64,000 nt of DNA from Candidatus Bathyarchaeota archaeon (GCA_005888635.1 VBAW01000016.1:133859-197858), one strand, 5' to 3'; numbered from the stretch's first letter, positions 10,036 through 19,256 are shown. A program made the numbers and translations. Notes: generated by a model not told the origin, from the letters alone.

Positions 10036-10161
10036 GCTATCTTATCTTCGCAACCAGAGCGGGCTTCGTCTTCGTGCTCTTCGAGATGGATCTCCGGTCT
10101 ATGAGGTCTGCTTCCCAAGCTCCTGTTCCTATCAAGCTGACTGGAACGCCGGTGTCTTTTT

Positions 10162-10994
10162 CTATCTTCGATACAAAGTCCCGTCCTTCTTTTGGCAGAT
10201 TTGAGTACGTTCACGTCCAGTAACCGTGCCGTGTTCCATCCAGCCCCGTCTAAGAACTTCTTCCCTGTCCAGTTGTCCTTCGAGAGGTCCCTCTCCTACT
10301 CGAGTAACGTAGGCTTTGAAAATAATCATCACATCATCGACATCTGTTGGGCCGATTCCAACATCCGCACATGCTTGAGATGCAGTGACGTCCTTTGACG
10401 TAACATACGGATACGTTCCATGGTACAGACTCAAGAATGTTCCTTGAGTCCCTTCAACCATCACATTCCGACCTTTCGATAGTGCTTGGTGAATCTCAGC
10501 AACTGTATCAGTGACATAGGGTCTCAAACTGGTTTCTTGTCTGGCCAATTTCACCATACGGAGCGCTCTTTCTGCATTGCACGCCCCTACTCCGCTCTTG
10601 GTTGAGCCGATCTTGTTCGAGAGATGTTCAGATTCGCACTCCTGAGTCTTATGCCGCTCTTCCAGCATTGCGCATTGATAGTCGACGCTGATTCTATTCT
10701 CAGAGTCAGTTTCCTTGATCTCATTTAGGAGAATCGCGGTTTCTACCGGCACTCCCGCGCCTATCATCAGACGCGTAGAACGACTTACGAACCCGCTAGG
10801 CATGAGTCTAAGATGATACTCTTTCCCATCGTGAAAGACGGTGTGACCTGCGTTCGGTCCGTTTCCTCCTCTAACGCATATGTCGGGTTTGTCCTTTAGG
10901 GCCAGGTAGGCAGCTATCTTGCCTCTAGGGGACGATTTGCATCGTCTTTCCCTTCGTCCCCAAAGAAACCCCCGACGATTACGGTACAGGGCAA
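10162..10994 (-). pseudogene. purA: adenylosuccinate synthetase remnant (disrupted)
   Basis: Minus-strand translation starts MPCTVIVGGFFGDEGK at TTG 10994 and then loses frame. After a 23-nt insertion (plus 10924-10946, containing the GACGATttgcATCGTC hairpin and a TAG) it resumes GKIAAYLALKDKPDICVRGGNGPNAGHTV...EGTQGTFLSLYHGTYPYVTSKD...TGRER. This is collinear with archaeal PurA, but the motif after TGRER is out of frame and the last roughly 100 aa are not recoverable in any frame. Confidence 0.6.
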
Positions 10995-11133: not shown

Positions 11134-12570
11134 TTATGGATCGTGGGAGTGTTCGTAGCCTGGGACTGGATGCGGCAGGTACGGGAAGACGGTCAGGAAG
11201 GGACTTGTGTTGGGCGGTTGTATCGGGCTTGAGTCTACCCCGTCTCCTACGAGAGCTGCTGCTCCATCGGGAGTGAAGCTTGGGTCTACTAGTGGTAGGG
11301 TTACTCCTGCGATTGCCCGAATTTCGATATCGATCACGTCGTCTCCTACTCGTCGTCCGTTGGGGAATCCTGCGGCGTCTCCCGCTATGAGGCCAAGACG
11401 ATTCGGGCTGGTCGTGTTGGGTTGTATTGCCATGTTGAGCCGCAGATAATCTGCTTGGACACTTCCTGTGAAGTTTTGGAAGCCGGGCACAATTCCCGAA
11501 GGTATGCCTGTCAACAGGATAGCAACGAGGTCCGCTCTGGGTTTGCTGTATCCTGCTAAGTTGGGGAAGATCCCAGGGTAAAGGATCGGTAAAAGCTTCT
11601 GGAGTTCTGGAGTCTGGTAGTATTGCAGGAATTGAGAGTCAAACCGTGGGTTCACTGTGTTCCACACGTCCTTCTTCCCAAGTGGAATTATCACTTCGTT
11701 GATGAGTGGCATTCCGAGCCGAGACACCTGTGTGAATGGTCCTGTTTGGATGCCGGGAGATGTGTCCTCGTCAAACTGGCCGTTGTCATCGTCGTCTCCG
11801 TCGCCGGGTAGGATTGTGGCTTTCCTTCGGCTCGCGGAGGCCCATATTCCCACCACTGAATTCTTGTTCAACGGATCTGTTGAATTGGAACCGTCACTTG
11901 TCAACTGTTTCTTCGAGACTTGAAGTGCGATTGTGTGAACGCTGAACCCTTTGGTTGTGTCCACTCCTGGAGCTGCTGGCGTAGGGATGAGGTGTAGGTT
12001 CTGAAAGGGTCTGAGTGTCGCCAGGTCAAAAATGGACCCTAGGTCAACGTAGAATGCTTCGTCTCGTTGTCCAGCGAAGACCGTCGAGTTGTCATTGAGA
12101 ATGTTAACGGCCGCATTTGCTAGGTCGGTATAGTTGGGGGTGGATCTCGGGCCAATGTTTACGGGAGGTGTCGAAAGTTTCGTGCCCAACACAGTTGGAG
12201 TTCCGCTTCGTCTTGGTCCCAAGACCTTCGTAACGGAATAGAACTGCTTGACGTTCCATGAGGAGTCTGTTAGGGAACTGATCGGTCCTGTGTTGTACAG
12301 GAAGGTATCAGGGTTCCCGATCTTCGTTTTGAACTTAAACTGATACGTGACATCTTCGATTCCGTCCCCATCGTTGTCAACCATTATTTCGTACAGTACG
12401 TCGTCTCCAAAGGTGTTGAAGTTGGGTCCGCCTGCTGGCTCTTCCAGTGGAATGTAGTTGGCGAGGATTGTGACCGTGTCAGGTTTGTCTGGGCTGACGA
12501 ATGCGTACAGATCCGTATTGTCAGCAACTGGATCTTTGGAGATCTTAGGAGCTTCTCGATGAGATGTCAC
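11134..12570 (-). CDS. DUF4331 family protein, no signal peptide of its own
   Basis: 478 aa beginning MTSHREAPKISKDPVADNTDLYAF. This is the hallmark SHREAP...DP..DxTDLYAF N-terminal motif of DUF4331, which in bacterial homologues follows a signal peptide. GTG start 4 nt after the upstream gene's stop, with a GGAG 8 nt upstream. Confidence 0.8.
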   Translation of the reverse strand: MTSHREAPKISKDPVADNTDLYAFVSPDKPDTVTILANYIPLEEPAGGPNFNTFGDDVLYEIMVDNDGDGIEDVTYQFKFKTKIGNPDTFLYNTGPISSLTDSSWNVKQFYSVTKVLGPRRSGTPTVLGTKLSTPPVNIGPRSTPNYTDLANAAVNILNDNSTVFAGQRDEAFYVDLGSIFDLATLRPFQNLHLIPTPAAPGVDTTKGFSVHTIALQVSKKQLTSDGSNSTDPLNKNSVVGIWASASRRKATILPGDGDDDDNGQFDEDTSPGIQTGPFTQVSRLGMPLINEVIIPLGKKDVWNTVNPRFDSQFLQYYQTPELQKLLPILYPGIFPNLAGYSKPRADLVAILLTGIPSGIVPGFQNFTGSVQADYLRLNMAIQPNTTSPNRLGLIAGDAAGFPNGRRVGDDVIDIEIRAIAGVTLPLVDPSFTPDGAAALVGDGVDSSPIQPPNTSPFLTVFPYLPHPVPGYEHSHDP

Positions 12571-12574
12571 GAAT

Positions 12575-12886
12575 CTATTCTCCTGCGCTCATTTTTTCAG
12601 CGATGAGTGCTGCCAGACCCGAGTCCTTGGTCTTGACGATGGTCTGTCCGTTCATCACGGTGACTTGGTCGCCGCTGACGGTGGCGACAATTGGTTCGGA
12701 GCTTTCGTTTGCAGCGGGCGTCTTCTTCGAAGGTTGCCCTGCGGGCAGGGGGATCTTGCCCATAAGCGCGGTAGCTCCTGCGGCAACGGCAGCGACCCCT
12801 ACTCCGAACTTCAGGAATTCTCTTCGTGAAACCTTCTTGTTCTGGTTATTCTCAGATTCGTTCTCTACTCTTTCTTCTGATGTCAA
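12575..12886 (-). CDS. small twin-arginine (Tat) signal protein
   Basis: 103 aa with a perfect Tat motif SRREFLKFGVGVAAVAAGATALMG (S-R-R-x-F-L-K plus h-region), followed by a roughly 60-aa hydrophilic domain. Its stop lies 4 nt from the DUF4331 start. Confidence 0.65.
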   Translation of the reverse strand: MTSEERVENESENNQNKKVSRREFLKFGVGVAAVAAGATALMGKIPLPAGQPSKKTPAANESSEPIVATVSGDQVTVMNGQTIVKTKDSGLAALIAEKMSAGE

Positions 12887-13006
12887 TAGATTTCGGGCGG
12901 TTCTTGTCTATAATCGCACTTAACGGTTTTTCCAGATTTCGCCGGATTCTTTCCATATTGCACTGGGAGATAGATGCAGGCTTCGTAAGATCAGTCGAAC
13001 GGCTTC

Positions 13007-13315
13007 CTATTTCCAGGTAACTCGAAGGAGGTTCGATATAGCTAGTGCTTCACCGACATTGACCAGTAGCATGTAGAACGATGCTTGGTCTACCAGAGTC
13101 GTTGCGGAGCTGACGTTGACGTTCTGAAACAGAAATAGCCAGAACACCAATATCGACAGATTGAGGATGACGAAGAAACTTCCGAAGAGTACCAGTCCCA
13201 GCGTGAAAGAGGATCTGATCCTGCGATAGGTTCCGATGTAAATTGCCAACAGCACGAGCGTCATTGCGATGTTCGCGAATGCGACGATAGCGCTAGCCCA
13301 CAATGCAAGGGACAA
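13007..13315 (-). CDS. small membrane protein (3 TM)
   Basis: 102-aa hydrophobic ORF directly downstream of the wHTH regulator, same strand. Confidence 0.5.
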   Translation of the reverse strand: MSLALWASAIVAFANIAMTLVLLAIYIGTYRRIRSSFTLGLVLFGSFFVILNLSILVFWLFLFQNVNVSSATTLVDQASFYMLLVNVGEALAISNLLRVTWK

Positions 13316-13326
13316 TTCTTTTCGAT

Positions 13327-13749
13327 TTACTCCTTGGCCGTTGCGCTTATCTTTCTTGTTCCAATTCTACTCCAAATCTCATCAAGGATTGGAAGGGCCT
13401 CTTCCATTTTCGCTGTCAGGAAGAGAACAGCGCCGTAGCTTCCTTTGTTCACAAGGGAGACTAGACCATTCTCCTCTAGTATCCTAACGTGATGCTGGGC
13501 TGTCTTGTAGTCCACTCGCAGAGTCTCTGCTAACTGATTCGCATTACAGGGACGATTCTGGAGAATTTTGATTATTTCGGCTCTGTTGGGTCCGCCTCGA
13601 GTGCCACCCAGCAGATACCAGAGCAACCGTCTGAGATATTTGTCCTGATTCGGTGAGCTGGACTGAGTGTCTCTGACTTCCGCGATCAGAACGGGGGTTC
13701 TGTGCAAGACTTCCGACACTTTGAGGGGCAGTTGTGGGATCCGTATCAT
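13327..13749 (-). CDS. ArsR-like winged-helix transcriptional regulator
   Basis: 140 aa. HTH core NANQLAETLRVDYKTAQHHVRILEENGLV is typical of the ArsR/SmtB fold. Confidence 0.6.
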   Translation of the reverse strand: MIRIPQLPLKVSEVLHRTPVLIAEVRDTQSSSPNQDKYLRRLLWYLLGGTRGGPNRAEIIKILQNRPCNANQLAETLRVDYKTAQHHVRILEENGLVSLVNKGSYGAVLFLTAKMEEALPILDEIWSRIGTRKISATAKE

Positions 13750-13888
13750 AGATATGATTCTCGAGGGATTGCTGGGAATCTTTTGAAGTCCCCCTTTCTA
13801 ATTTGCGCTGTTATAATGGTTCCCGACGCACTTCATGAAAAATGGCGGGATGAAGAACAGGGTCTTAGCTTTGCTAGGGACTGTGCTT

Positions 13889-13922
13889 GGGCGGGCTTTT
13901 CTTGATTGATGTCAGCCCGCCC
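13889..13922. other. perfect 9-bp-stem hairpin GGGCGGGCT-N16-AGCCCGCCC
   Basis: Seen directly in the intergenic region between the tatC 3' end and the ArsR-like gene start. No adjacent T-tract. Confidence 0.4.
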
Positions 13923-14057
13923 TGTCGATCGTCATCGCGTTGGCTGAGAACGCTCCGGCATATTTCAGCGGAAATTCATCATTCACCATTGGCAACACCA
14001 GTCCGGGGATTTAACGTGTGTGACGACATGGTTCATCGCAGAGGGGATGATAGTCGA

Positions 14058-14948
14058 TCAGACTCTTGCCTTCCCACAGAGTCCGCAAAATACTCCGCCG
14101 GAGTCCATTTCACCTCCACAGTAGGAGCATTTCGTCTCTCCCGTGGAAAAACGCACCCCCACTACTTCGTCCTTCTCGTATCTTCTCGCATACCACATTG
14201 CCCCCTCGATCAATATTATCATGGGAATGAACAGCGCTATGTCGGCCAATGGTCCTCCGTCTGGAGAGGCCAGTGCGGTGCCGACCAGGGTGACCGCCCA
14301 GACGTATTTTCTATTCTTCCTCAAGACACTTGTTCCAACGACGTGCAGTTTCACCAACAGGACGAAAATGACAGGTATCGTAAACGCGAATCCAGAGACT
14401 ACTAGAACGAAGAAGATCAAGTTGTAGAAGTCGTCCGCGTAGATGTAATTGGAAAATCCGACGAATCCGAAGAATGATAGTGAGAATATGAAAACGAAGG
14501 GCAACAATACAAAGAATGCGAAGAGTGCTCCCGCGACGAAGAGCACGGAGAAAGCCGCGACAAATGGATAGAGAGACTGGCGCTCGCTAGGTTTTATCGC
14601 GGGATCAACGAATTTGTAAATCTCATACGCCAATACAGGAACGCTCGCAGCAAAACCGAACACCGCTGCCCCGACCACTATTATTTCCAAAGGAGCAGTA
14701 ACGGTGCCTCCGATCAGAAAATACTGGGGAGGCAACAAGCTCTCCCTGATTCCAAGGAGGACTGCAGTGATTAGCGGTTTGTAGATCTGAAATGGATTCT
14801 GGTAGACTGATACAGGGTCAGCAGGAAAGACGAGGAAAAATAGTGTTGCACCGAGGAAGGCGTAAATCCATATTTTGATCCGGCGTGAAAGCTCGTTAAT
14901 ATGGTCCCATAACGGGAGAACTTTCTCGGTTTCGTTAGGGTCGGACAA
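14058..14948 (-). CDS. tatC: Sec-independent translocase TatC with C-terminal zinc-ribbon extension
   Basis: 296 aa. N-terminal LWDHINELSRRIKIWIYAF matches the TatC signature (LxxHLxELRxRL) and there are 6 TM helices. An extra C-terminal tail CSYCGGEMDSGGVFCGLCGKARV supplies a CxxC...CxxC motif. Confidence 0.85.
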   Translation of the reverse strand: MSDPNETEKVLPLWDHINELSRRIKIWIYAFLGATLFFLVFPADPVSVYQNPFQIYKPLITAVLLGIRESLLPPQYFLIGGTVTAPLEIIVVGAAVFGFAASVPVLAYEIYKFVDPAIKPSERQSLYPFVAAFSVLFVAGALFAFFVLLPFVFIFSLSFFGFVGFSNYIYADDFYNLIFFVLVVSGFAFTIPVIFVLLVKLHVVGTSVLRKNRKYVWAVTLVGTALASPDGGPLADIALFIPMIILIEGAMWYARRYEKDEVVGVRFSTGETKCSYCGGEMDSGGVFCGLCGKARV

Positions 14949-15096
14949 AGATCAGTTTTTTCCCCCGTAACCTCTGAGGAGTCCCAACATTGCGTTTTCA
15001 GTAACCTTGTGCCTGATTCGGATTGTCATTAAGAGAAACATTACCACCGGTAGAAATCTGGGCTTGGGCCGAGTCGTACGATCTACTGGCTCTGAG

Positions 15097-15381
15097 TTAC
15101 TTTTGCGCCAATCTCACGATTTCGTCGGAGATTTCTTGGCGGGTCTTTCCTTGAGTGCTGATTCCCAGTTTCTGTGCTGTATCAATAAGAGAGTCGGGAG
15201 TTGACACTATTGTCGAGGAGCTCGACGTTGGTTGCATCAGACCTTTCGATGCGTCATCGAACTCCTTTCGAGCCTTGCCGATTGATCTCGCCAGTTCCGG
15301 TATTTTCTGCGGTCCCCAGATCAGTATCACAGCTAGTACGCCTAAGATGAGCAGTATCTGAAACGGATCACCGATGGCCAT
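15097..15381 (-). CDS. tatA: Sec-independent translocase TatA/E
   Basis: 94 aa with an N-terminal TM helix plus amphipathic helix and the GPQKIPELARSIGKA motif. Confidence 0.8.
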   Translation of the reverse strand: MAIGDPFQILLILGVLAVILIWGPQKIPELARSIGKARKEFDDASKGLMQPTSSSSTIVSTPDSLIDTAQKLGISTQGKTRQEISDEIVRLAQK

Positions 15382-15492: not shown

Positions 15493-16260
15493 TTGGAAGG
15501 TCGTCGATCGCTGAAAATTGTCGTCTGTGTGCGTCGTGTCCCGGACACGGCAGCCCGTATCAGAATAGCTTCTGATGGAAAGTCGATTGATACTTCGGAT
15601 GCTGAATTCGTAATAAACCCTTACGAAGAATATGCTCTCGAGCAGGCCGTGCAGCTCAAGGAGAAGCATGGGGGTGAGGTCACAGTCGTTACGTTGGGTC
15701 CAGAGAAGACGACCCAGGTCATCATGAAGGCACTTGCCCTCGGGGCTGATAAGGCGGTTCATCTCAAGGTGGACAAGATCCCTGAAGACCCTGGCTCAAT
15801 TGCAAGAGCGATCGCTAACGAGTTGAAGGGGTCGGAATTCGATGTCCTTCTTTTCGGAAAGAAAGGCGTCGACGATGACAACCAACAGGTCGGCCCCATG
15901 GTCGCAGAATTGTTGGGGATTCCCTGCATAACCCAAATCGTCAAGCTAGATGTATCCGACGGAAGAGGGGTTGCGCACAGAGAAGTAGAAGGAGGATCAA
16001 TAACGGTGGAAACGACCCTTCCCGCAGCGTTTACCGCAGAAAAGGATCTGACTGTTCCTCGCTACGCCTCTCTCAGGGAGCTTGTAGCCGCAAGAAAAAA
16101 GCCGATTATCGTAAAGGACGTCCAACTACGGGCACTCTCTCTCGAGATCATTTCCGTCCAAAATCCTCCCCCCCGCCCTCCGGGAAAGATAGTTGGAAAA
16201 GGGGTTGATGCAGTCCCCACACTAGTGAAGCTCTTGCATGAAGAGGCCAAAGTGATCTAG
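15493..16260 (+). CDS. etfB: electron transfer flavoprotein beta subunit
   Basis: 255 aa with LKIVVCVRRVPDTAARIRI and VINPYEEYALEQAV motifs typical of EtfB/FixA. TTG start. Confidence 0.85.
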   Translation: MEGRRSLKIVVCVRRVPDTAARIRIASDGKSIDTSDAEFVINPYEEYALEQAVQLKEKHGGEVTVVTLGPEKTTQVIMKALALGADKAVHLKVDKIPEDPGSIARAIANELKGSEFDVLLFGKKGVDDDNQQVGPMVAELLGIPCITQIVKLDVSDGRGVAHREVEGGSITVETTLPAAFTAEKDLTVPRYASLRELVAARKKPIIVKDVQLRALSLEIISVQNPPPRPPGKIVGKGVDAVPTLVKLLHEEAKVI

Positions 16261-16263
16261 GCA

Positions 16264-17247
16264 GTGACAGGAGAAGTTCTAGTTCTTGCAGAGTCATCAG
16301 GACCTGCCTTCCGCAAAGCTGCCCTGGAAGCGGTCACCGAAGGAAGAAGACTTGCGGATCTTCTCAGGGTGAGTGAGATTGTTCTAGCAATTGGAAACGG
16401 CTTGAAGGATCCCGCGAGTGAGCTCGGAAAGTATGGAGCCGACAAAGTGATTTTGGCAGATGACCCTTTATTGGCAATCTTCCACCCCGATTATTATCGA
16501 CAGATAGCGCTAGAGGCAATCAAGCGAGTTAACCCAAGCATTATTCTCGCTGCGGCAACTTCTACGGGAAAAGACTTGGCGCCACGATTGGCGATTCACC
16601 TAGATACAGCTGTTGCGAGTGAGTGCACTCATTTGGAGATGGAGAACGGGAAGCTCATAGCGACCCGGCCTGCTTATGCTGGCAAGGTCTTGCTCAGAGT
16701 CAAAGTCAACAGCTCGCCCAGCATCGCAACTCTCCGACCAAATGTCTTTACCGCAAGAGAAGCCGTACCTGGAAAGAAACCGACAGTCGAGCAAATCGCG
16801 TTCAATCGACCGGATTCACGGATGATTGTGAAGGAATTCGTTACTCAAGGGGCGAAGAAACTAGATCTCACAGAGGCCAGCGTTATAGTTTCGGGCGGCC
16901 GGGGAATGGGTGGACCCCAGAATTACAAGATTCTTGAGGAATTGGCTGAGGTCATGGGCGGAGTTGTCGGAGCATCAAGAGCCTCTGTGGATGCCGGTTG
17001 GAGGCCTCACTCAGACCAAGTTGGCCAGACAGGGCGTACTGTTTCTCCGATGCTGTACATTGCCGCGGGCATTTCAGGCGCGATTCAACACCGCGTAGGA
17101 ATGATCAACTCTAAGGTTATCGTCGCGATCAATAAGGATCCGGAAGCTCTCATCTTCGGATTCGCGGACTACGGCATTGTCGGAGATGTTTTCGAAGTGG
17201 TCCCAGCGCTTACGCGCGAAATGAAAGCGTTCTACGGAAAAACGTGA
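16264..17247 (+). CDS. etfA: electron transfer flavoprotein alpha subunit
   Basis: 327 aa with FAD-binding C-terminal domain motifs VSGGRGMGGPQNY...YIAAGISGAIQHRVGM typical of EtfA/FixB. GTG start. Confidence 0.85.
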   Translation: MTGEVLVLAESSGPAFRKAALEAVTEGRRLADLLRVSEIVLAIGNGLKDPASELGKYGADKVILADDPLLAIFHPDYYRQIALEAIKRVNPSIILAAATSTGKDLAPRLAIHLDTAVASECTHLEMENGKLIATRPAYAGKVLLRVKVNSSPSIATLRPNVFTAREAVPGKKPTVEQIAFNRPDSRMIVKEFVTQGAKKLDLTEASVIVSGGRGMGGPQNYKILEELAEVMGGVVGASRASVDAGWRPHSDQVGQTGRTVSPMLYIAAGISGAIQHRVGMINSKVIVAINKDPEALIFGFADYGIVGDVFEVVPALTREMKAFYGKT

Positions 17248-17260
17248 AGACTACGGGTTC

Positions 17261-17611
17261 TCATTCCATATGGGATTTGAGAAACCGCCCGATTTCCTGA
17301 CTCAAGGGGCTTCTCGAGACGTCAATGACGGGCATCTCCATGTTACCAGCCTTCACGTTGTGGCTGAAATCAGACATGGGAGCGAAGCTGATCGAGGCAA
17401 TGTAGAGTTCACCTTTCGCGTACTCTTCAGGCATCTCAGGAGGCGGAATCGGCTGAGAGACGAAGACGACTCCCTCACACCAATTTAGAAGAATGGGTTG
17501 CCCCATTTTCATGATGATGGCAAGAGAGTTCACTAGCTGCTGAGGGTTGTCGTATTTGACGAGTTCGCGGACAACAACCCGCTTCAGTGGTTCATGGGCT
17601 ATTTCGACCAT
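17261..17611 (-). CDS. hypothetical protein
   Basis: About 117 aa, counted from the internal Met (MVEIAHEPLK...). The longer 205-aa ORF upstream would overlap fixX in another frame. Confidence 0.35.
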   Translation of the reverse strand: MVEIAHEPLKRVVVRELVKYDNPQQLVNSLAIIMKMGQPILLNWCEGVVFVSQPIPPPEMPEEYAKGELYIASISFAPMSDFSHNVKAGNMEMPVIDVSRSPLSQEIGRFLKSHME

Positions 17612-17679
17612 TGACGATTCAACTTCACGCTCGGAGGTCTGCGAGTGGCCTATTTGTTGGTTAAGAGGATTTGGGATAC

Positions 17680-17973
17680 TTATCCGAGCTTGAAAGCGAC
17701 TCCTTTTCCGCCTGAGGGATATTTCCAGCTGATCGCGCCAGCGCCGATCTTGTGACACACAATCAAGCAAGCCCCTGTCTCCATGCATCCCTCGGTGTTG
17801 TAGTTCAGCTTCTCCTTCCAGGCGTAGACTTCGGCTGGGCATATGTAGAGACATGGTTTTGATTCGCAGTGATTGCATTTGTCGGTATCGACTACGATGA
17901 ATGGTTCTGCGTCCTTCGCAAAACTTACGAGCGCCAGCCTCTTGTCAAGCGTTAGGGATTCTTCAGTGGGCAT
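17680..17973 (-). CDS. fixX: ferredoxin-like protein FixX
   Basis: About 97 aa from MPTEESLTLDKRLALVSF. CNHCESKPCLYICPAEVY and EGCMETGACLIVC cysteine clusters, plus the C-terminal WKYPSGGKGVAFKLG that is typical of FixX. Confidence 0.75.
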   Translation of the reverse strand: MPTEESLTLDKRLALVSFAKDAEPFIVVDTDKCNHCESKPCLYICPAEVYAWKEKLNYNTEGCMETGACLIVCHKIGAGAISWKYPSGGKGVAFKLG

Positions 17974-17975
17974 CG

Positions 17976-19256
17976 TTAGAACGTCCTTGCTCCTCTGATC
18001 AAGTCGCGTATTAGAGTGAATATTGAGACTCGGCCTTTCGCCTGCAATCTCACTTCCCTGGAGATCTTTCTCTTTCCCGTTCCATCCACCCGGTAGACTG
18101 CCTCGGCGGCTGAGCACACGAGTTCTGGATAGACCGTGTATAATCGCCTGTTCCTTAGATACGCCGGGACACGGTGGAAAGTGTACATGTCTTTGAGAGC
18201 TGGGTCTTCATGCAATTTTCTTTCGAACACCTTCAGGGAGTTCGCTGAATAGTCTTTCTTCTTTCGAGCTTCCAAAACAGTTTGAGCCGCGGCGACCCCG
18301 GCTTGAATAGCCATGTCGACTCCTCGGAACGTGTAACCGTTGTTCAGGAGATGGCCCGCCGCATCTCCCGCAACAACCATCCCATCGGTATATGGACGGC
18401 TGAGCATTTTTGGGCCGGCTTCAGGGATCATATGCGCATCGTATTCGACAGTCTTTCCTCCTTTGATGAAGCGCTGCACCTTTGGGTGTTCTCGGAGTTT
18501 CTCCATGAAGCTGTAGGATTGAGTCTTCTGTGAGGAAACATCGTCTCCCCCAACAACCATGCCGAGCGCTAAGCTGTCTTGGTTTGTGTAGAGGAACCCT
18601 CCGCCTCGGAGTCCTCCCGAGCACGCTCCGATAAAGACATGGGCCGCTCCCTGGCCTGGTTCGAGACCGAGACGTTCCTCTATCTTCTCGCTCGGCAGCT
18701 CTATAACGTCCTTTACTCCCATGGAGATTTGGCTCGGTTCAAGCATCGATGCGAGACCCGCTCTCCGTGCTAGCCCAGTCGTCGTCCCGTCGCAGGCGAT
18801 GACCACATCTGTTGGGATCTTGTCTTGGCCAGCAACGATTCCTCTTACACGACTGCCGTCCATGATCAGGTCGTCGACTCTGCTTTCGGTAATGAGGGAC
18901 GCTCCCGCCTTTTCCGCCTCCTCAGCTAGCCATTTGTCGAACTTCGCTCGCTTCGCTGTAAAACTGCCTTCTGCATCCTTAGACTCGAATTCGAAGGAGA
19001 ACGCATTGTCTGAAGTCATAAATGTGATACCCTCCTTTCGCACAAAGCGTTCGACAGGGGCATCCTTCCATGAGTCCCCAAGAAGTTTCTTGAGGGCATA
19101 CGAGTATATTCTTCCTCCAAACACGTTCTTTGATCCTGGAAAAGTTCCCCGCTCCACGAGCAAAACCTGAACTCCCTCTCTCGCAAGTGTAATTGCTGCT
19201 GCGCTTCCAGCCGGACCTGCGCCGACTACGGCGACTTCGAAGCCTTCAAGTGACAT
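17976..19256 (-). CDS. fixC: FAD-dependent ETF:quinone-type oxidoreductase FixC
   Basis: 426 aa with a GAGPAGSAAA dinucleotide-binding motif and FixC/ETF-QO-like body. Immediately upstream of fixX. Confidence 0.85.
   Translation of the reverse strand: MSLEGFEVAVVGAGPAGSAAAITLAREGVQVLLVERGTFPGSKNVFGGRIYSYALKKLLGDSWKDAPVERFVRKEGITFMTSDNAFSFEFESKDAEGSFTAKRAKFDKWLAEEAEKAGASLITESRVDDLIMDGSRVRGIVAGQDKIPTDVVIACDGTTTGLARRAGLASMLEPSQISMGVKDVIELPSEKIEERLGLEPGQGAAHVFIGACSGGLRGGGFLYTNQDSLALGMVVGGDDVSSQKTQSYSFMEKLREHPKVQRFIKGGKTVEYDAHMIPEAGPKMLSRPYTDGMVVAGDAAGHLLNNGYTFRGVDMAIQAGVAAAQTVLEARKKKDYSANSLKVFERKLHEDPALKDMYTFHRVPAYLRNRRLYTVYPELVCSAAEAVYRVDGTGKRKISREVRLQAKGRVSIFTLIRDLIRGARTF

Follow-up and report, generated by a model that had tools for sequence, protein, structure and literature searches.

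A small twin-arginine signal protein as candidate escort for a signal-less DUF4331 protein in a Bathyarchaeota archaeon

Introduction

How does a protein whose gene encodes no export signal reach the outside of the cell? The question is raised by a locus of a soil archaeon, Candidatus Bathyarchaeota archaeon (GCA_005888635.1 VBAW01000016.1:133859-197858), in which tatA and tatC, genes for twin-arginine translocation (Tat), lie near the gene for a 103-aa protein with a Tat signal, here called the escort, and the gene for a signal-less protein of the DUF4331 family. We analysed a stretch of 64,000 nt, referred to as the window, in which this locus occupies positions 11134-15381. Cases of Tat hitch-hiking, in which a signal-less protein is carried across the membrane by a partner's Tat signal, have been described for a handful of redox enzymes. 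In [NiFe]-hydrogenase, the folded and cofactor-loaded large subunit is co-exported on the Tat signal of the small subunit. Here we describe the escort and its DUF4331 neighbour, their distribution across archaea and bacteria and the genes found around them, and we weigh the idea that the pair is exported as a folded complex.

Results

The DUF4331 protein leaves no room for a signal of its own

On the minus strand of the window, tatA, tatC, an ArsR-type gene, a gene for a small membrane protein, the escort open reading frame (ORF) and the DUF4331 gene all lie in one orientation (Table 1). The closest named loci belong to Bathyarchaeota metagenome-assembled genomes, with about 80% protein identity. 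A preliminary description of this DNA had drawn the same six co-oriented genes, and each ORF was found where it had been placed. The description had further claimed that the 478-aa ORF is a DUF4331 protein that starts 4 nt from the escort stop codon and lacks an export signal. All of this was borne out. With 463.1 bits (cut-off 27) the ORF matches PF14224 over its full length, the alignment starting at residue 3 and covering model positions 2-421 of 421; its N-terminus reads M-T-S-H-R-E-A-P, of which H4-R-E-A-P is invariant. The junction can be read directly in the sequence as the escort stop codon TAG (12577-12575), the four nucleotides ATTC and the start codon GTG (12570-12568). In the DUF4331 frame a TGA stands seven codons upstream of this GTG without an alternative start codon between them, and the protein therefore has no room for an N-terminal extension or a signal of its own.

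An AF2 model of the DUF4331 protein shows a beta-sandwich core (predicted template modelling score, pTM, 0.71). The sequence matched no PDB chain at E values up to 1, no solved homologue was found, and full-text searches of a literature library returned no paper that mentions DUF4331 or PF14224 ('HREAP' retrieved only misspelt forms of 'therapy'). Two further conserved stretches are a D-N-D-G-D-G-x-E-D at residues ~64-73, which resembles acidic Ca-binding loops, and an invariant G-Y-E-H-S-H at the C-terminus. Both fall into low-confidence parts of the model, so that they cannot be placed relative to the N-terminal His.

The escort consists of a Tat signal and a small folded module

Near its N-terminus the escort has an S/T-R-R-x-F-L-K consensus, here SRREFLK, followed by a hydrophobic stretch of 17 residues (h-region), as expected from the textbook twin-arginine signal that had been ascribed to it. 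This region scored 22.2 bits against TIGR01409 (cut-off 16.7) and 19.1 against Pfam PF10518, slightly under the cut-off of 22.7. R21, R22 and F24 are invariant in the family alignment. A strict Tat-signal pattern, run over every window ORF of 80 aa or more, picked out the escort as the only candidate.

Searches returned 275 close homologues of the escort; among the matches listed all were stand-alone proteins of 98-141 aa. A profile search widened the family to at least 634 clusters and, among the matches listed, lengths ranged from 87 to 142 aa and none was fused. Throughout the family the RR signal and the h-region are followed by a linker that varies and by a C-terminal module (~35-38 aa) that is conserved. 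AF2 models this module with a predicted local distance difference test (pLDDT) value of ~89-90 as three strands (residues 66-71, 74-79 and 82-87) and a helix (89-100), while signal and linker are unstructured; the linker between the h-region and the folded module comprises ~20 residues. The module belongs to no Pfam family, found nothing in the PDB by Foldseek at E values up to 0.001 and contains no Cys or His conserved in the family alignment. We also considered whether it is a split-off piece of DUF4331 and rejected this, as the escort hidden Markov model matches DUF4331 proteins only in their Tat-signal regions. Database names of the homologues are generic or wrongly transferred. Many (P0398, P0401, P0406 and others) are named 'anaerobic selenocysteine-containing dehydrogenase' by one source, which appears to be a transfer error arising from Tat-signal similarity.

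The escort is found where the DUF4331 signal is missing

The nearest DUF4331 homologues all start with M-[ST]-S-H-R-E-A-P, including bacterial ones at 65% identity (e.g. from Aminicenantes). On three contigs of this distant kind, a small protein with an RR signal and a similar C-terminal segment is encoded immediately upstream. For a systematic comparison we sampled one genome per species and kept the best 80 loci of 594 matching stretches. A further 80 loci were collected using an alignment of own-signal DUF4331 proteins as the query. Every DUF4331 gene in all loci (150 genomes) was classed by explicit criteria, and neighbour genes were scored by six-frame profile searches.

The preliminary description had left it to be seen whether the pair recurs in relatives. 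It does: at 79 of the 80 loci a match to the escort profile lay immediately next to DUF4331, the lone exception beginning at a contig edge. Hosts of the pair include Bathyarchaeota, Thermoplasmata, Nitrososphaerales, Aminicenantes, Chloroflexota, Dormibacterota and many Actinomycetota, altogether at least eight phylum- or class-level groups, and among them are the cultured Kribbella catacumbae, Thermogemmatispora carboxidivorans and Streptacidiphilus and Kitasatospora species. With DUF4331 found in three archaeal classes, the earlier impression that the family is unusual in archaea had to be dropped. The spacing between the two genes varies from a 17-nt overlap to a 75-nt gap, and in three Acidimicrobiia loci the escort lies on the strand opposite DUF4331; the association is therefore independent of an overlapping junction. 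In loci where the motif was found, the DUF4331 start lies exactly three codons before the His, often with a stop codon one to four codons further upstream.

An exhaustive search yielded 5,606 representative DUF4331 clusters. Among the best 150 representatives, 28 start with M-S-S-H and 83 complete ones are extended at the N-terminus (median 30 aa). Examples with an annotated signal peptide right before SSHREAP come from Marinobacter (…SFA/SSHREAP) and Streptomyces (SRRVL…SAA/SSHREAP). The two forms differ sharply in their neighbourhood: an escort is adjacent to the signal-less DUF4331 gene in 113 cases and missing in 3, and it is adjacent to an own-signal gene in none of 33 (Fisher p = 5.5e-30, with the kinship of the loci ignored). 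Of the three exceptions, one (L066) is a partial match, and the other two are second tandem DUF4331 copies at escort-bearing loci (L052 and L059). In these tandem loci (L052 at ~3226 and ~5000, L059 at ~3274 and ~5000) the two signal-less paralogues start with M-S-S-H-K-E-A-P and a single escort gene lies between them.

This complementary distribution, which has no real exception, is our chief argument that the escort supplies the missing signal, and it supports the earlier suggestion that the signal has moved to a separate polypeptide. A companion claim, that bacterial DUF4331 proteins carry their own signal immediately before SHREAP, proved right for the own-signal subfamilies, but the signal-less form turned out to be common in bacteria too. 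The type of signal differs as well, since RR is present in only 14 of 83 own signals compared with 79 of 82 escorts. Co-export of a folded partner requires Tat, and the almost constant RR of the escorts fits a folded partner that can cross by this route only.

tat genes accompany the signal-less class only

We found tatA within 3 kb of DUF4331 in 22 of 117 signal-less loci (Fisher p 0.004) and tatC in 16 of 117 (Fisher p 0.02), with neither present in any of 34 own-signal loci; both tests ignore kinship. Either gene was present within this distance in 24 of the 117. The gene orders differ between lineages. The lineage of the window has tatA, tatC, arsR, DUF8036, escort, DUF4331, whereas in several Thermoleophilia, Gaiellales and other Actinomycetes the order is escort, DUF4331, a gene for a ~123-aa protein, tatA, tatC and NicO, with gaps of at most 15 nt (tight operons of this kind are L071, L080, L081 and L083) and a divergent pair of extracytoplasmic function (ECF) sigma factor and RskA genes. 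Dormibacterota have escort, DUF4331, 123-aa gene, tatA, tatC. In Acidimicrobiia the DUF4331 gene stands on one strand and escort, 123-aa gene and tatA on the other, and Nitrososphaerales have arsR, DUF8036, escort, DUF4331 and NicO, with tatA ~0.5 kb past NicO on the opposite strand. Such independent recurrence in differing orders argues against chance. Of the dedicated Tat module put forward in the preliminary description, the link to translocase genes thus stands as a feature of the signal-less class, while for the tatAC genes of the window a dedicated copy is plausible.

Membership of the two translocase proteins is given by Pfam gathering scores, which both pass; neither reaches the NCBIfam equivalog cut-offs. 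For TatA the matches to NF011430 and TIGR01411 lie under the respective cut-offs, and TatC scores 122.6 bits against TIGR01912 (TatC-Arch), under its cut-off of 192.6. The extra zinc-ribbon tail that had been noted on TatC is indeed present as CxxC-x11-CxxC, and all four Cys are kept in relatives (L001, L005 and L013). This tail is predicted to lie on the cytoplasmic side and is outside the Pfam TatC model.

In the distant Bathyarchaeota genome L015 (6659-10471) the pair is followed by genes that, by sequence only, resemble NuoB/C/D-type or membrane-bound hydrogenase subunits; neither tatAC nor an ArsR gene is nearby.

A regular N-terminal histidine and metal-related neighbours

Ala stands three positions before the His in 75 of the 83 own-signal representatives, with Gly, Ser or Thr in the others, and five positions before it 79 have A, V, T, G or S. 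As these -1 and -3 residues match the signal-peptidase rule, cleavage is predicted exactly two residues before the His. In the signal-less clade, loss of Met from M-S/T-S-H likewise gives His at residue 3 (all 28 of 28 representatives start with M-S-S-H). Both routes thus predict His at position 3 of mature DUF4331. H2N-X-X-His with a free N-terminal amine is the definition of an amino-terminal Cu- and Ni-binding (ATCUN) site (PMC7701195). That S, T and A are all tolerated at residue 1 speaks against an N-terminal nucleophile.

Genes that recur near DUF4331 include NicO in 13 signal-less loci, among them the archaeal locus L023, and, next to own-signal copies, HupE/UreJ or a gene annotated as 'nickel transporter'. 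ECF sigma and RskA-type anti-sigma pairs are found near DUF4331 in both classes, and an ArsR-type regulator in archaeal loci. The gene for the ~123-aa protein, which has no Pfam family, occurs at 90 of 117 signal-less loci and at no own-signal locus (0 of 34). In bacteria it lies directly downstream of signal-less DUF4331 (L032:6362-6733, L082:2345-2716 and 88 more loci). The conserved core of this family is beta-rich (…vLDIGgdxGALvv…EIEIsP…H…V…R…AAvF…G.Y…), and His-rich N-termini, which can be likened to those of Ni/Co chaperones, are seen in many members (HSHSHGHEHTHE or HPHPHAHA, for example). The family was absent from the window and from the remaining archaeal loci.

Further features of the locus

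The ArsR-type protein scores 31.7 against the metalloregulator model NF033788, under its cut-off of 55. The gene for the 102-aa membrane protein starts 11 nt after the ArsR gene; it had no match of its own in a local Pfam search, and it accompanies the ArsR gene and the pair both in Bathyarchaeota and in the Nitrososphaerales locus L023, where the ArsR-type gene is likewise upstream of the pair.

The non-coding block upstream of the escort gene (Table 1) is better conserved across Bathyarchaeota relatives than the neighbouring coding sequence. L001, L002, L005, L011-L014, L018 and L176 have near-identical copies, and L015 has a recognisable one. Some relatives have the block in the escort reading frame, where annotation treats it as an N-terminal extension (MGQIPGRFGKTVK…); in the window and L176 the frames differ. 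Rfam covariance models gave no match to window positions 12780-13060 at E values up to 10, and the block contains no clean inverted repeat or palindrome; a riboswitch or other known RNA was rejected on these grounds. The block may be the promoter or operator of the escort-DUF4331 transcript.

Directly beside tatA lies an electron-transfer flavoprotein cluster (15493-19256), with etfB and etfA-like genes on the plus strand and fixC and fixX-like genes on the minus strand, that is syntenic in every close relative. The adenylosuccinate synthetase gene purA (~10064-10994, minus strand) is interrupted twice. At ~10934-10956 a 23-nt insertion (ACGATGCAAATCGTCCCCTAGAG), flanked by the 8-bp complementary pair GGGGACGA…TCGTCCCC, splits the P-loop codons (…GDEGK / GKIAAYLA…), shifts the frame and adds a stop codon. 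The independent contig L176 shares it, and the relative L001 lacks it. Possible readings are a small mRNA intron, a mini-insertion or a pseudogene; a bulge-helix-bulge intron was considered and dropped after an unconvincing RNA fold (z = -1.7). The second frame break (~10207-10237) falls between residues ~255 and 291. There, L176 continues in a single frame up to residue 291, where the contig ends, and the break may be a window-specific mutation or an assembly indel.

Table 1. Features of the escort-DUF4331 locus, in coordinates of the window
Feature	Position	Strand	Evidence or remark
Signal-less DUF4331 protein, 478 aa, GTG start	11134-12570	minus	PF14224 E = 1.4e-138
Codons M1-T2-S3-H4 of DUF4331	12559-12570	minus	Met removal would give T-S-H, NH2-X-X-His (ATCUN-like)
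AGGAG Shine-Dalgarno-like element for DUF4331, within the end of the escort gene	12580-12584	minus	9 nt upstream of GTG
Escort mini-protein, 103 aa, TTG start	12575-12886	minus	beside signal-less DUF4331 in 113/116 cases
Escort C-terminal beta-beta-beta-alpha module, residues 64-101, proposed DUF4331-binding part	12584-12697	minus	conserved across phyla
Escort twin-arginine signal region: acidic n-region, S20-R21-R22-E-F-L-K, h-region FGVGVAAVAAGATALMG	12758-12886	minus	TIGR01409 above cut-off
Candidate promoter/operator, a conserved block of non-coding DNA upstream of the escort gene	12919-12973	minus	~55 nt, near-identical across relatives
Small membrane protein, ~three helices, 102 aa, DUF8036-like	13007-13315	minus	PF26119 (DUF8036) in relatives' precomputed annotations
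ArsR/SmtB-type winged-helix regulator, 140 aa	13327-13749	minus	PF01022 (HTH_5) 38.2 bits, cut-off 22
TatC C-terminal CxxC-x11-CxxC zinc-ribbon-like tail, residues 270-296	14061-14141	minus	weak Zn_ribbon_3 and DUF7575 matches, E ~0.07
tatC, 296 aa	14058-14948	minus	PF00902 124.5 bits, E = 6.5e-36, model positions 1-208/208
tatA, 94 aa	15097-15381	minus	PF02416 41.6 bits, cut-off 21

Discussion

We propose, with a probability of about 70%, that the escort is the signal-bearing small subunit of a Tat hitch-hiker pair and that it is co-exported with DUF4331 as a folded complex. Escort and DUF4331 would be encoded on a single transcript, with DUF4331 translated from its own AGGAG and GTG, 4 nt past the escort stop codon. 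DUF4331 would fold in the cytoplasm and be bound by the C-terminal ~38-aa module of the escort with its three strands and helix. The SRREFLK signal would then bring the folded heterodimer to the TatC/TatA translocase encoded just upstream. Outside the cell the escort signal may be cleaved or kept as a membrane tether. Several observations weigh against this proposal. Binding between escort and DUF4331 is argued from comparison and the structural models are of single chains; that of DUF4331 is only moderate (pLDDT 63) and leaves the N-terminus unmodelled. Some own-signal DUF4331 proteins have Tat-like RR signals themselves, so that an own signal need not preclude DUF4331 folding. Moreover, the loci are kin, so the Fisher p-values overstate their independence.

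Is the pair real, and would its two members travel together? The two ORFs are only 4 nt and one frame apart, and the purA breaks demonstrate that reading frames are disrupted elsewhere in the window, so a frameshift in the assembly might have split a single secreted protein composed of signal, ~60-aa spacer and DUF4331. The comparative data have already refuted this. The independent metagenome contig L176 (92.7% identity across 6.3 kb) shares both the GAATAGATTCGTG junction and the TTG start; the escort homologues listed stand alone across the family; spacing and strand of the two genes vary between loci; and the signals of own-signal DUF4331 proteins abut SSHREAP directly, with no 60-aa spacer. 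The two ORFs hold, and no natural fusion was found among the top 120 escort matches or the top 150 DUF4331 representatives. One candidate, P0333, was rejected as its 158-aa N-terminal extension seems to come from a gene call made too long, its genome being high in GC. If the genes are two, they could still be linked while their products are not co-exported, DUF4331 staying in the cytoplasm and the small Tat protein acting outside alone as sensor, inhibitor or metal-binding peptide. This would fit the fact that DUF4331 is signal-less, as is its His-rich 123-aa neighbour. However, relatives at 40-55% identity with the same invariant N-terminal motif are clearly secreted, the escort occurs exactly where the DUF4331 signal is missing, and a mature escort reduced to 38 aa without conserved Cys or His offers little for a separate function, which makes this idea very unlikely. 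What becomes of the signal after co-export is a different matter. The h-region might stay uncleaved as an N-terminal anchor, as in Rieske proteins, and tether DUF4331 to the outer face of the membrane. The c-region of the window escort (…GATALMGKIPLP…) has only a weak A-x-A site, a ~20-residue linker separates the h-region from the folded module, exported proteins need retention in archaea and monoderm bacteria, and a weak match to the Rieske Tat-signal family PF10399 is compatible with such an anchor. Yet many bacterial escorts have good A-x-A sites past the h-region (…APGAQAA/S, …PPIARA/A, …APSAQA/T), and we consider a permanent anchor unlikely.

The role of the neighbouring translocase is harder to judge. 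That the hitch-hiker pair is real but the window's tatA and tatC are the housekeeping translocase, their position being mechanistically meaningless, has in our view a little less than an even chance. It would agree with the 93 of 117 signal-less loci that have no tat gene within 3 kb and with L015, which has the pair without tatAC. In the window, the regulator and membrane-protein genes and gaps of 308 nt and 120 nt separate tatC from the pair, and a single tatC was seen in the 64 kb. Because a stretch of ~20 kb is syntenic within the window's own lineage, the tat adjacency there counts as a single evolutionary event. Most of these facts also weigh against a dedicated translocase in our proposal. 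On the other side stand the restriction of tat adjacency to the signal-less class and its at least six arrangements across phyla, some of them tight operons, when chance would by our own estimate give well under 1% per locus. Substrate-linked tat genes also have a precedent in PhoD and TatAdCd of Bacillus subtilis (PMC3827258).

In that phoD-tatAd-tatCd system the tat genes lie beside the substrate gene, as in the 24 signal-less loci and there sometimes in one operon, but PhoD carries its own signal, unlike signal-less DUF4331, and a comparable specificity of the window tatAC is only plausible. The mechanism that we propose would be classical Tat hitch-hiking, with a cargo family that is uncharacterised and an escort family that has no name. 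Its closest analogue is the gamma subunit of the FAD-dependent glucose dehydrogenase (FAD, flavin adenine dinucleotide) of Burkholderia cepacia, a small Tat-signal subunit needed to secrete its signal-less catalytic partner (PMC6719666). Like the escort, it is small, is encoded adjacent to its partner and has no other evident catalytic role and no structural relatives (PMC6719666). It differs in having five helices where the escort has three strands and a helix in ~38 aa, and in carrying a flavoenzyme instead of DUF4331; for the escort, moreover, the role is a proposal. E. coli PaoABC is a precedent for a signal-less subunit that crosses on the Tat signal of its partner (PMC4273604). In PaoABC and the hydrogenases, however, the signal-bearing subunit is itself a cofactor-containing enzyme subunit, whereas the escort is a minimal protein without conserved Cys or His, and a cofactor of DUF4331 is putative. 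We found no sequence or fold kinship of the escort with glucose dehydrogenase gamma, PaoABC or [NiFe] hydrogenases. Another likeness is that to the 'formate dehydrogenase region TAT target' family TIGR02811, whose members are also small stand-alone proteins with little beyond a Tat signal beside a larger exported enzyme. The escort was rejected as a member, matching in the signal region only (25.8 bits against a cut-off of 48.45).

A further comparison is with own-signal DUF4331 itself (Proteobacteria, Bacteroidota, Streptomyces), which has in common with the signal-less form the domain, the invariant S-H-R-E-A-P mature start, ECF sigma and anti-sigma genes and a Ni/Co-type permease nearby. 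It differs by a cleavable, mostly Sec-type signal before SSHREAP, by the lack of an escort, a 123-aa neighbour and adjacent tat genes, and by a HupE/UreJ permease in place of NicO.

What might DUF4331 do outside the cell? The regularity of His-3 together with the recurring Ni/Co permease and regulator neighbours leads us to consider a metal-related extracellular role. It suggests an extracytoplasmic protein that most likely binds or handles Ni, Co or Cu, although our confidence in this is below that for co-export. Clusters for hydrogenases contain genes for accessory His-rich Ni chaperones and NiCoT permeases. In the signal-less clade, metal might possibly be loaded in the cytoplasm before export by Tat. 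Against a metal function speaks that NicO and the His-rich 123-aa gene are both absent within the 64 kb of the window lineage, and N-terminal acetylation in archaea could block an ATCUN site. A more far-reaching proposal, which we regard as doubtful, is that DUF4331 represents an unrecognised class of extracytoplasmic Ni/Co/Cu-binding proteins with an N-terminal X-S-His site, NicO or HupE/UreJ partners and ECF-sigma or ArsR control. The site of the signal-less form would be made by Met removal, loaded with help of the 123-aa protein and exported as a holo-complex on the 38-aa escort module, often via linked tatAC. If the metal reading is true, the family would offer a nickel-type analogue of the principle that the place of folding decides which metal is bound.

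If the pair is exported as proposed, it would add a large and phylogenetically broad family to the known hitch-hikers, with an escort reduced to a signal and a module of ~38 aa. The pair would be a convenient minimal system to study how Tat accepts a signal-less partner. As it is encoded by cultured organisms, experiments are independent of the uncultured archaeon. The family provides its own natural control, since own-signal and escort-dependent DUF4331 proteins coexist within it and never overlap. For DUF4331 itself, the predicted mature His-3 and the Ni/Co permease neighbours would be a first concrete and testable lead on its role.

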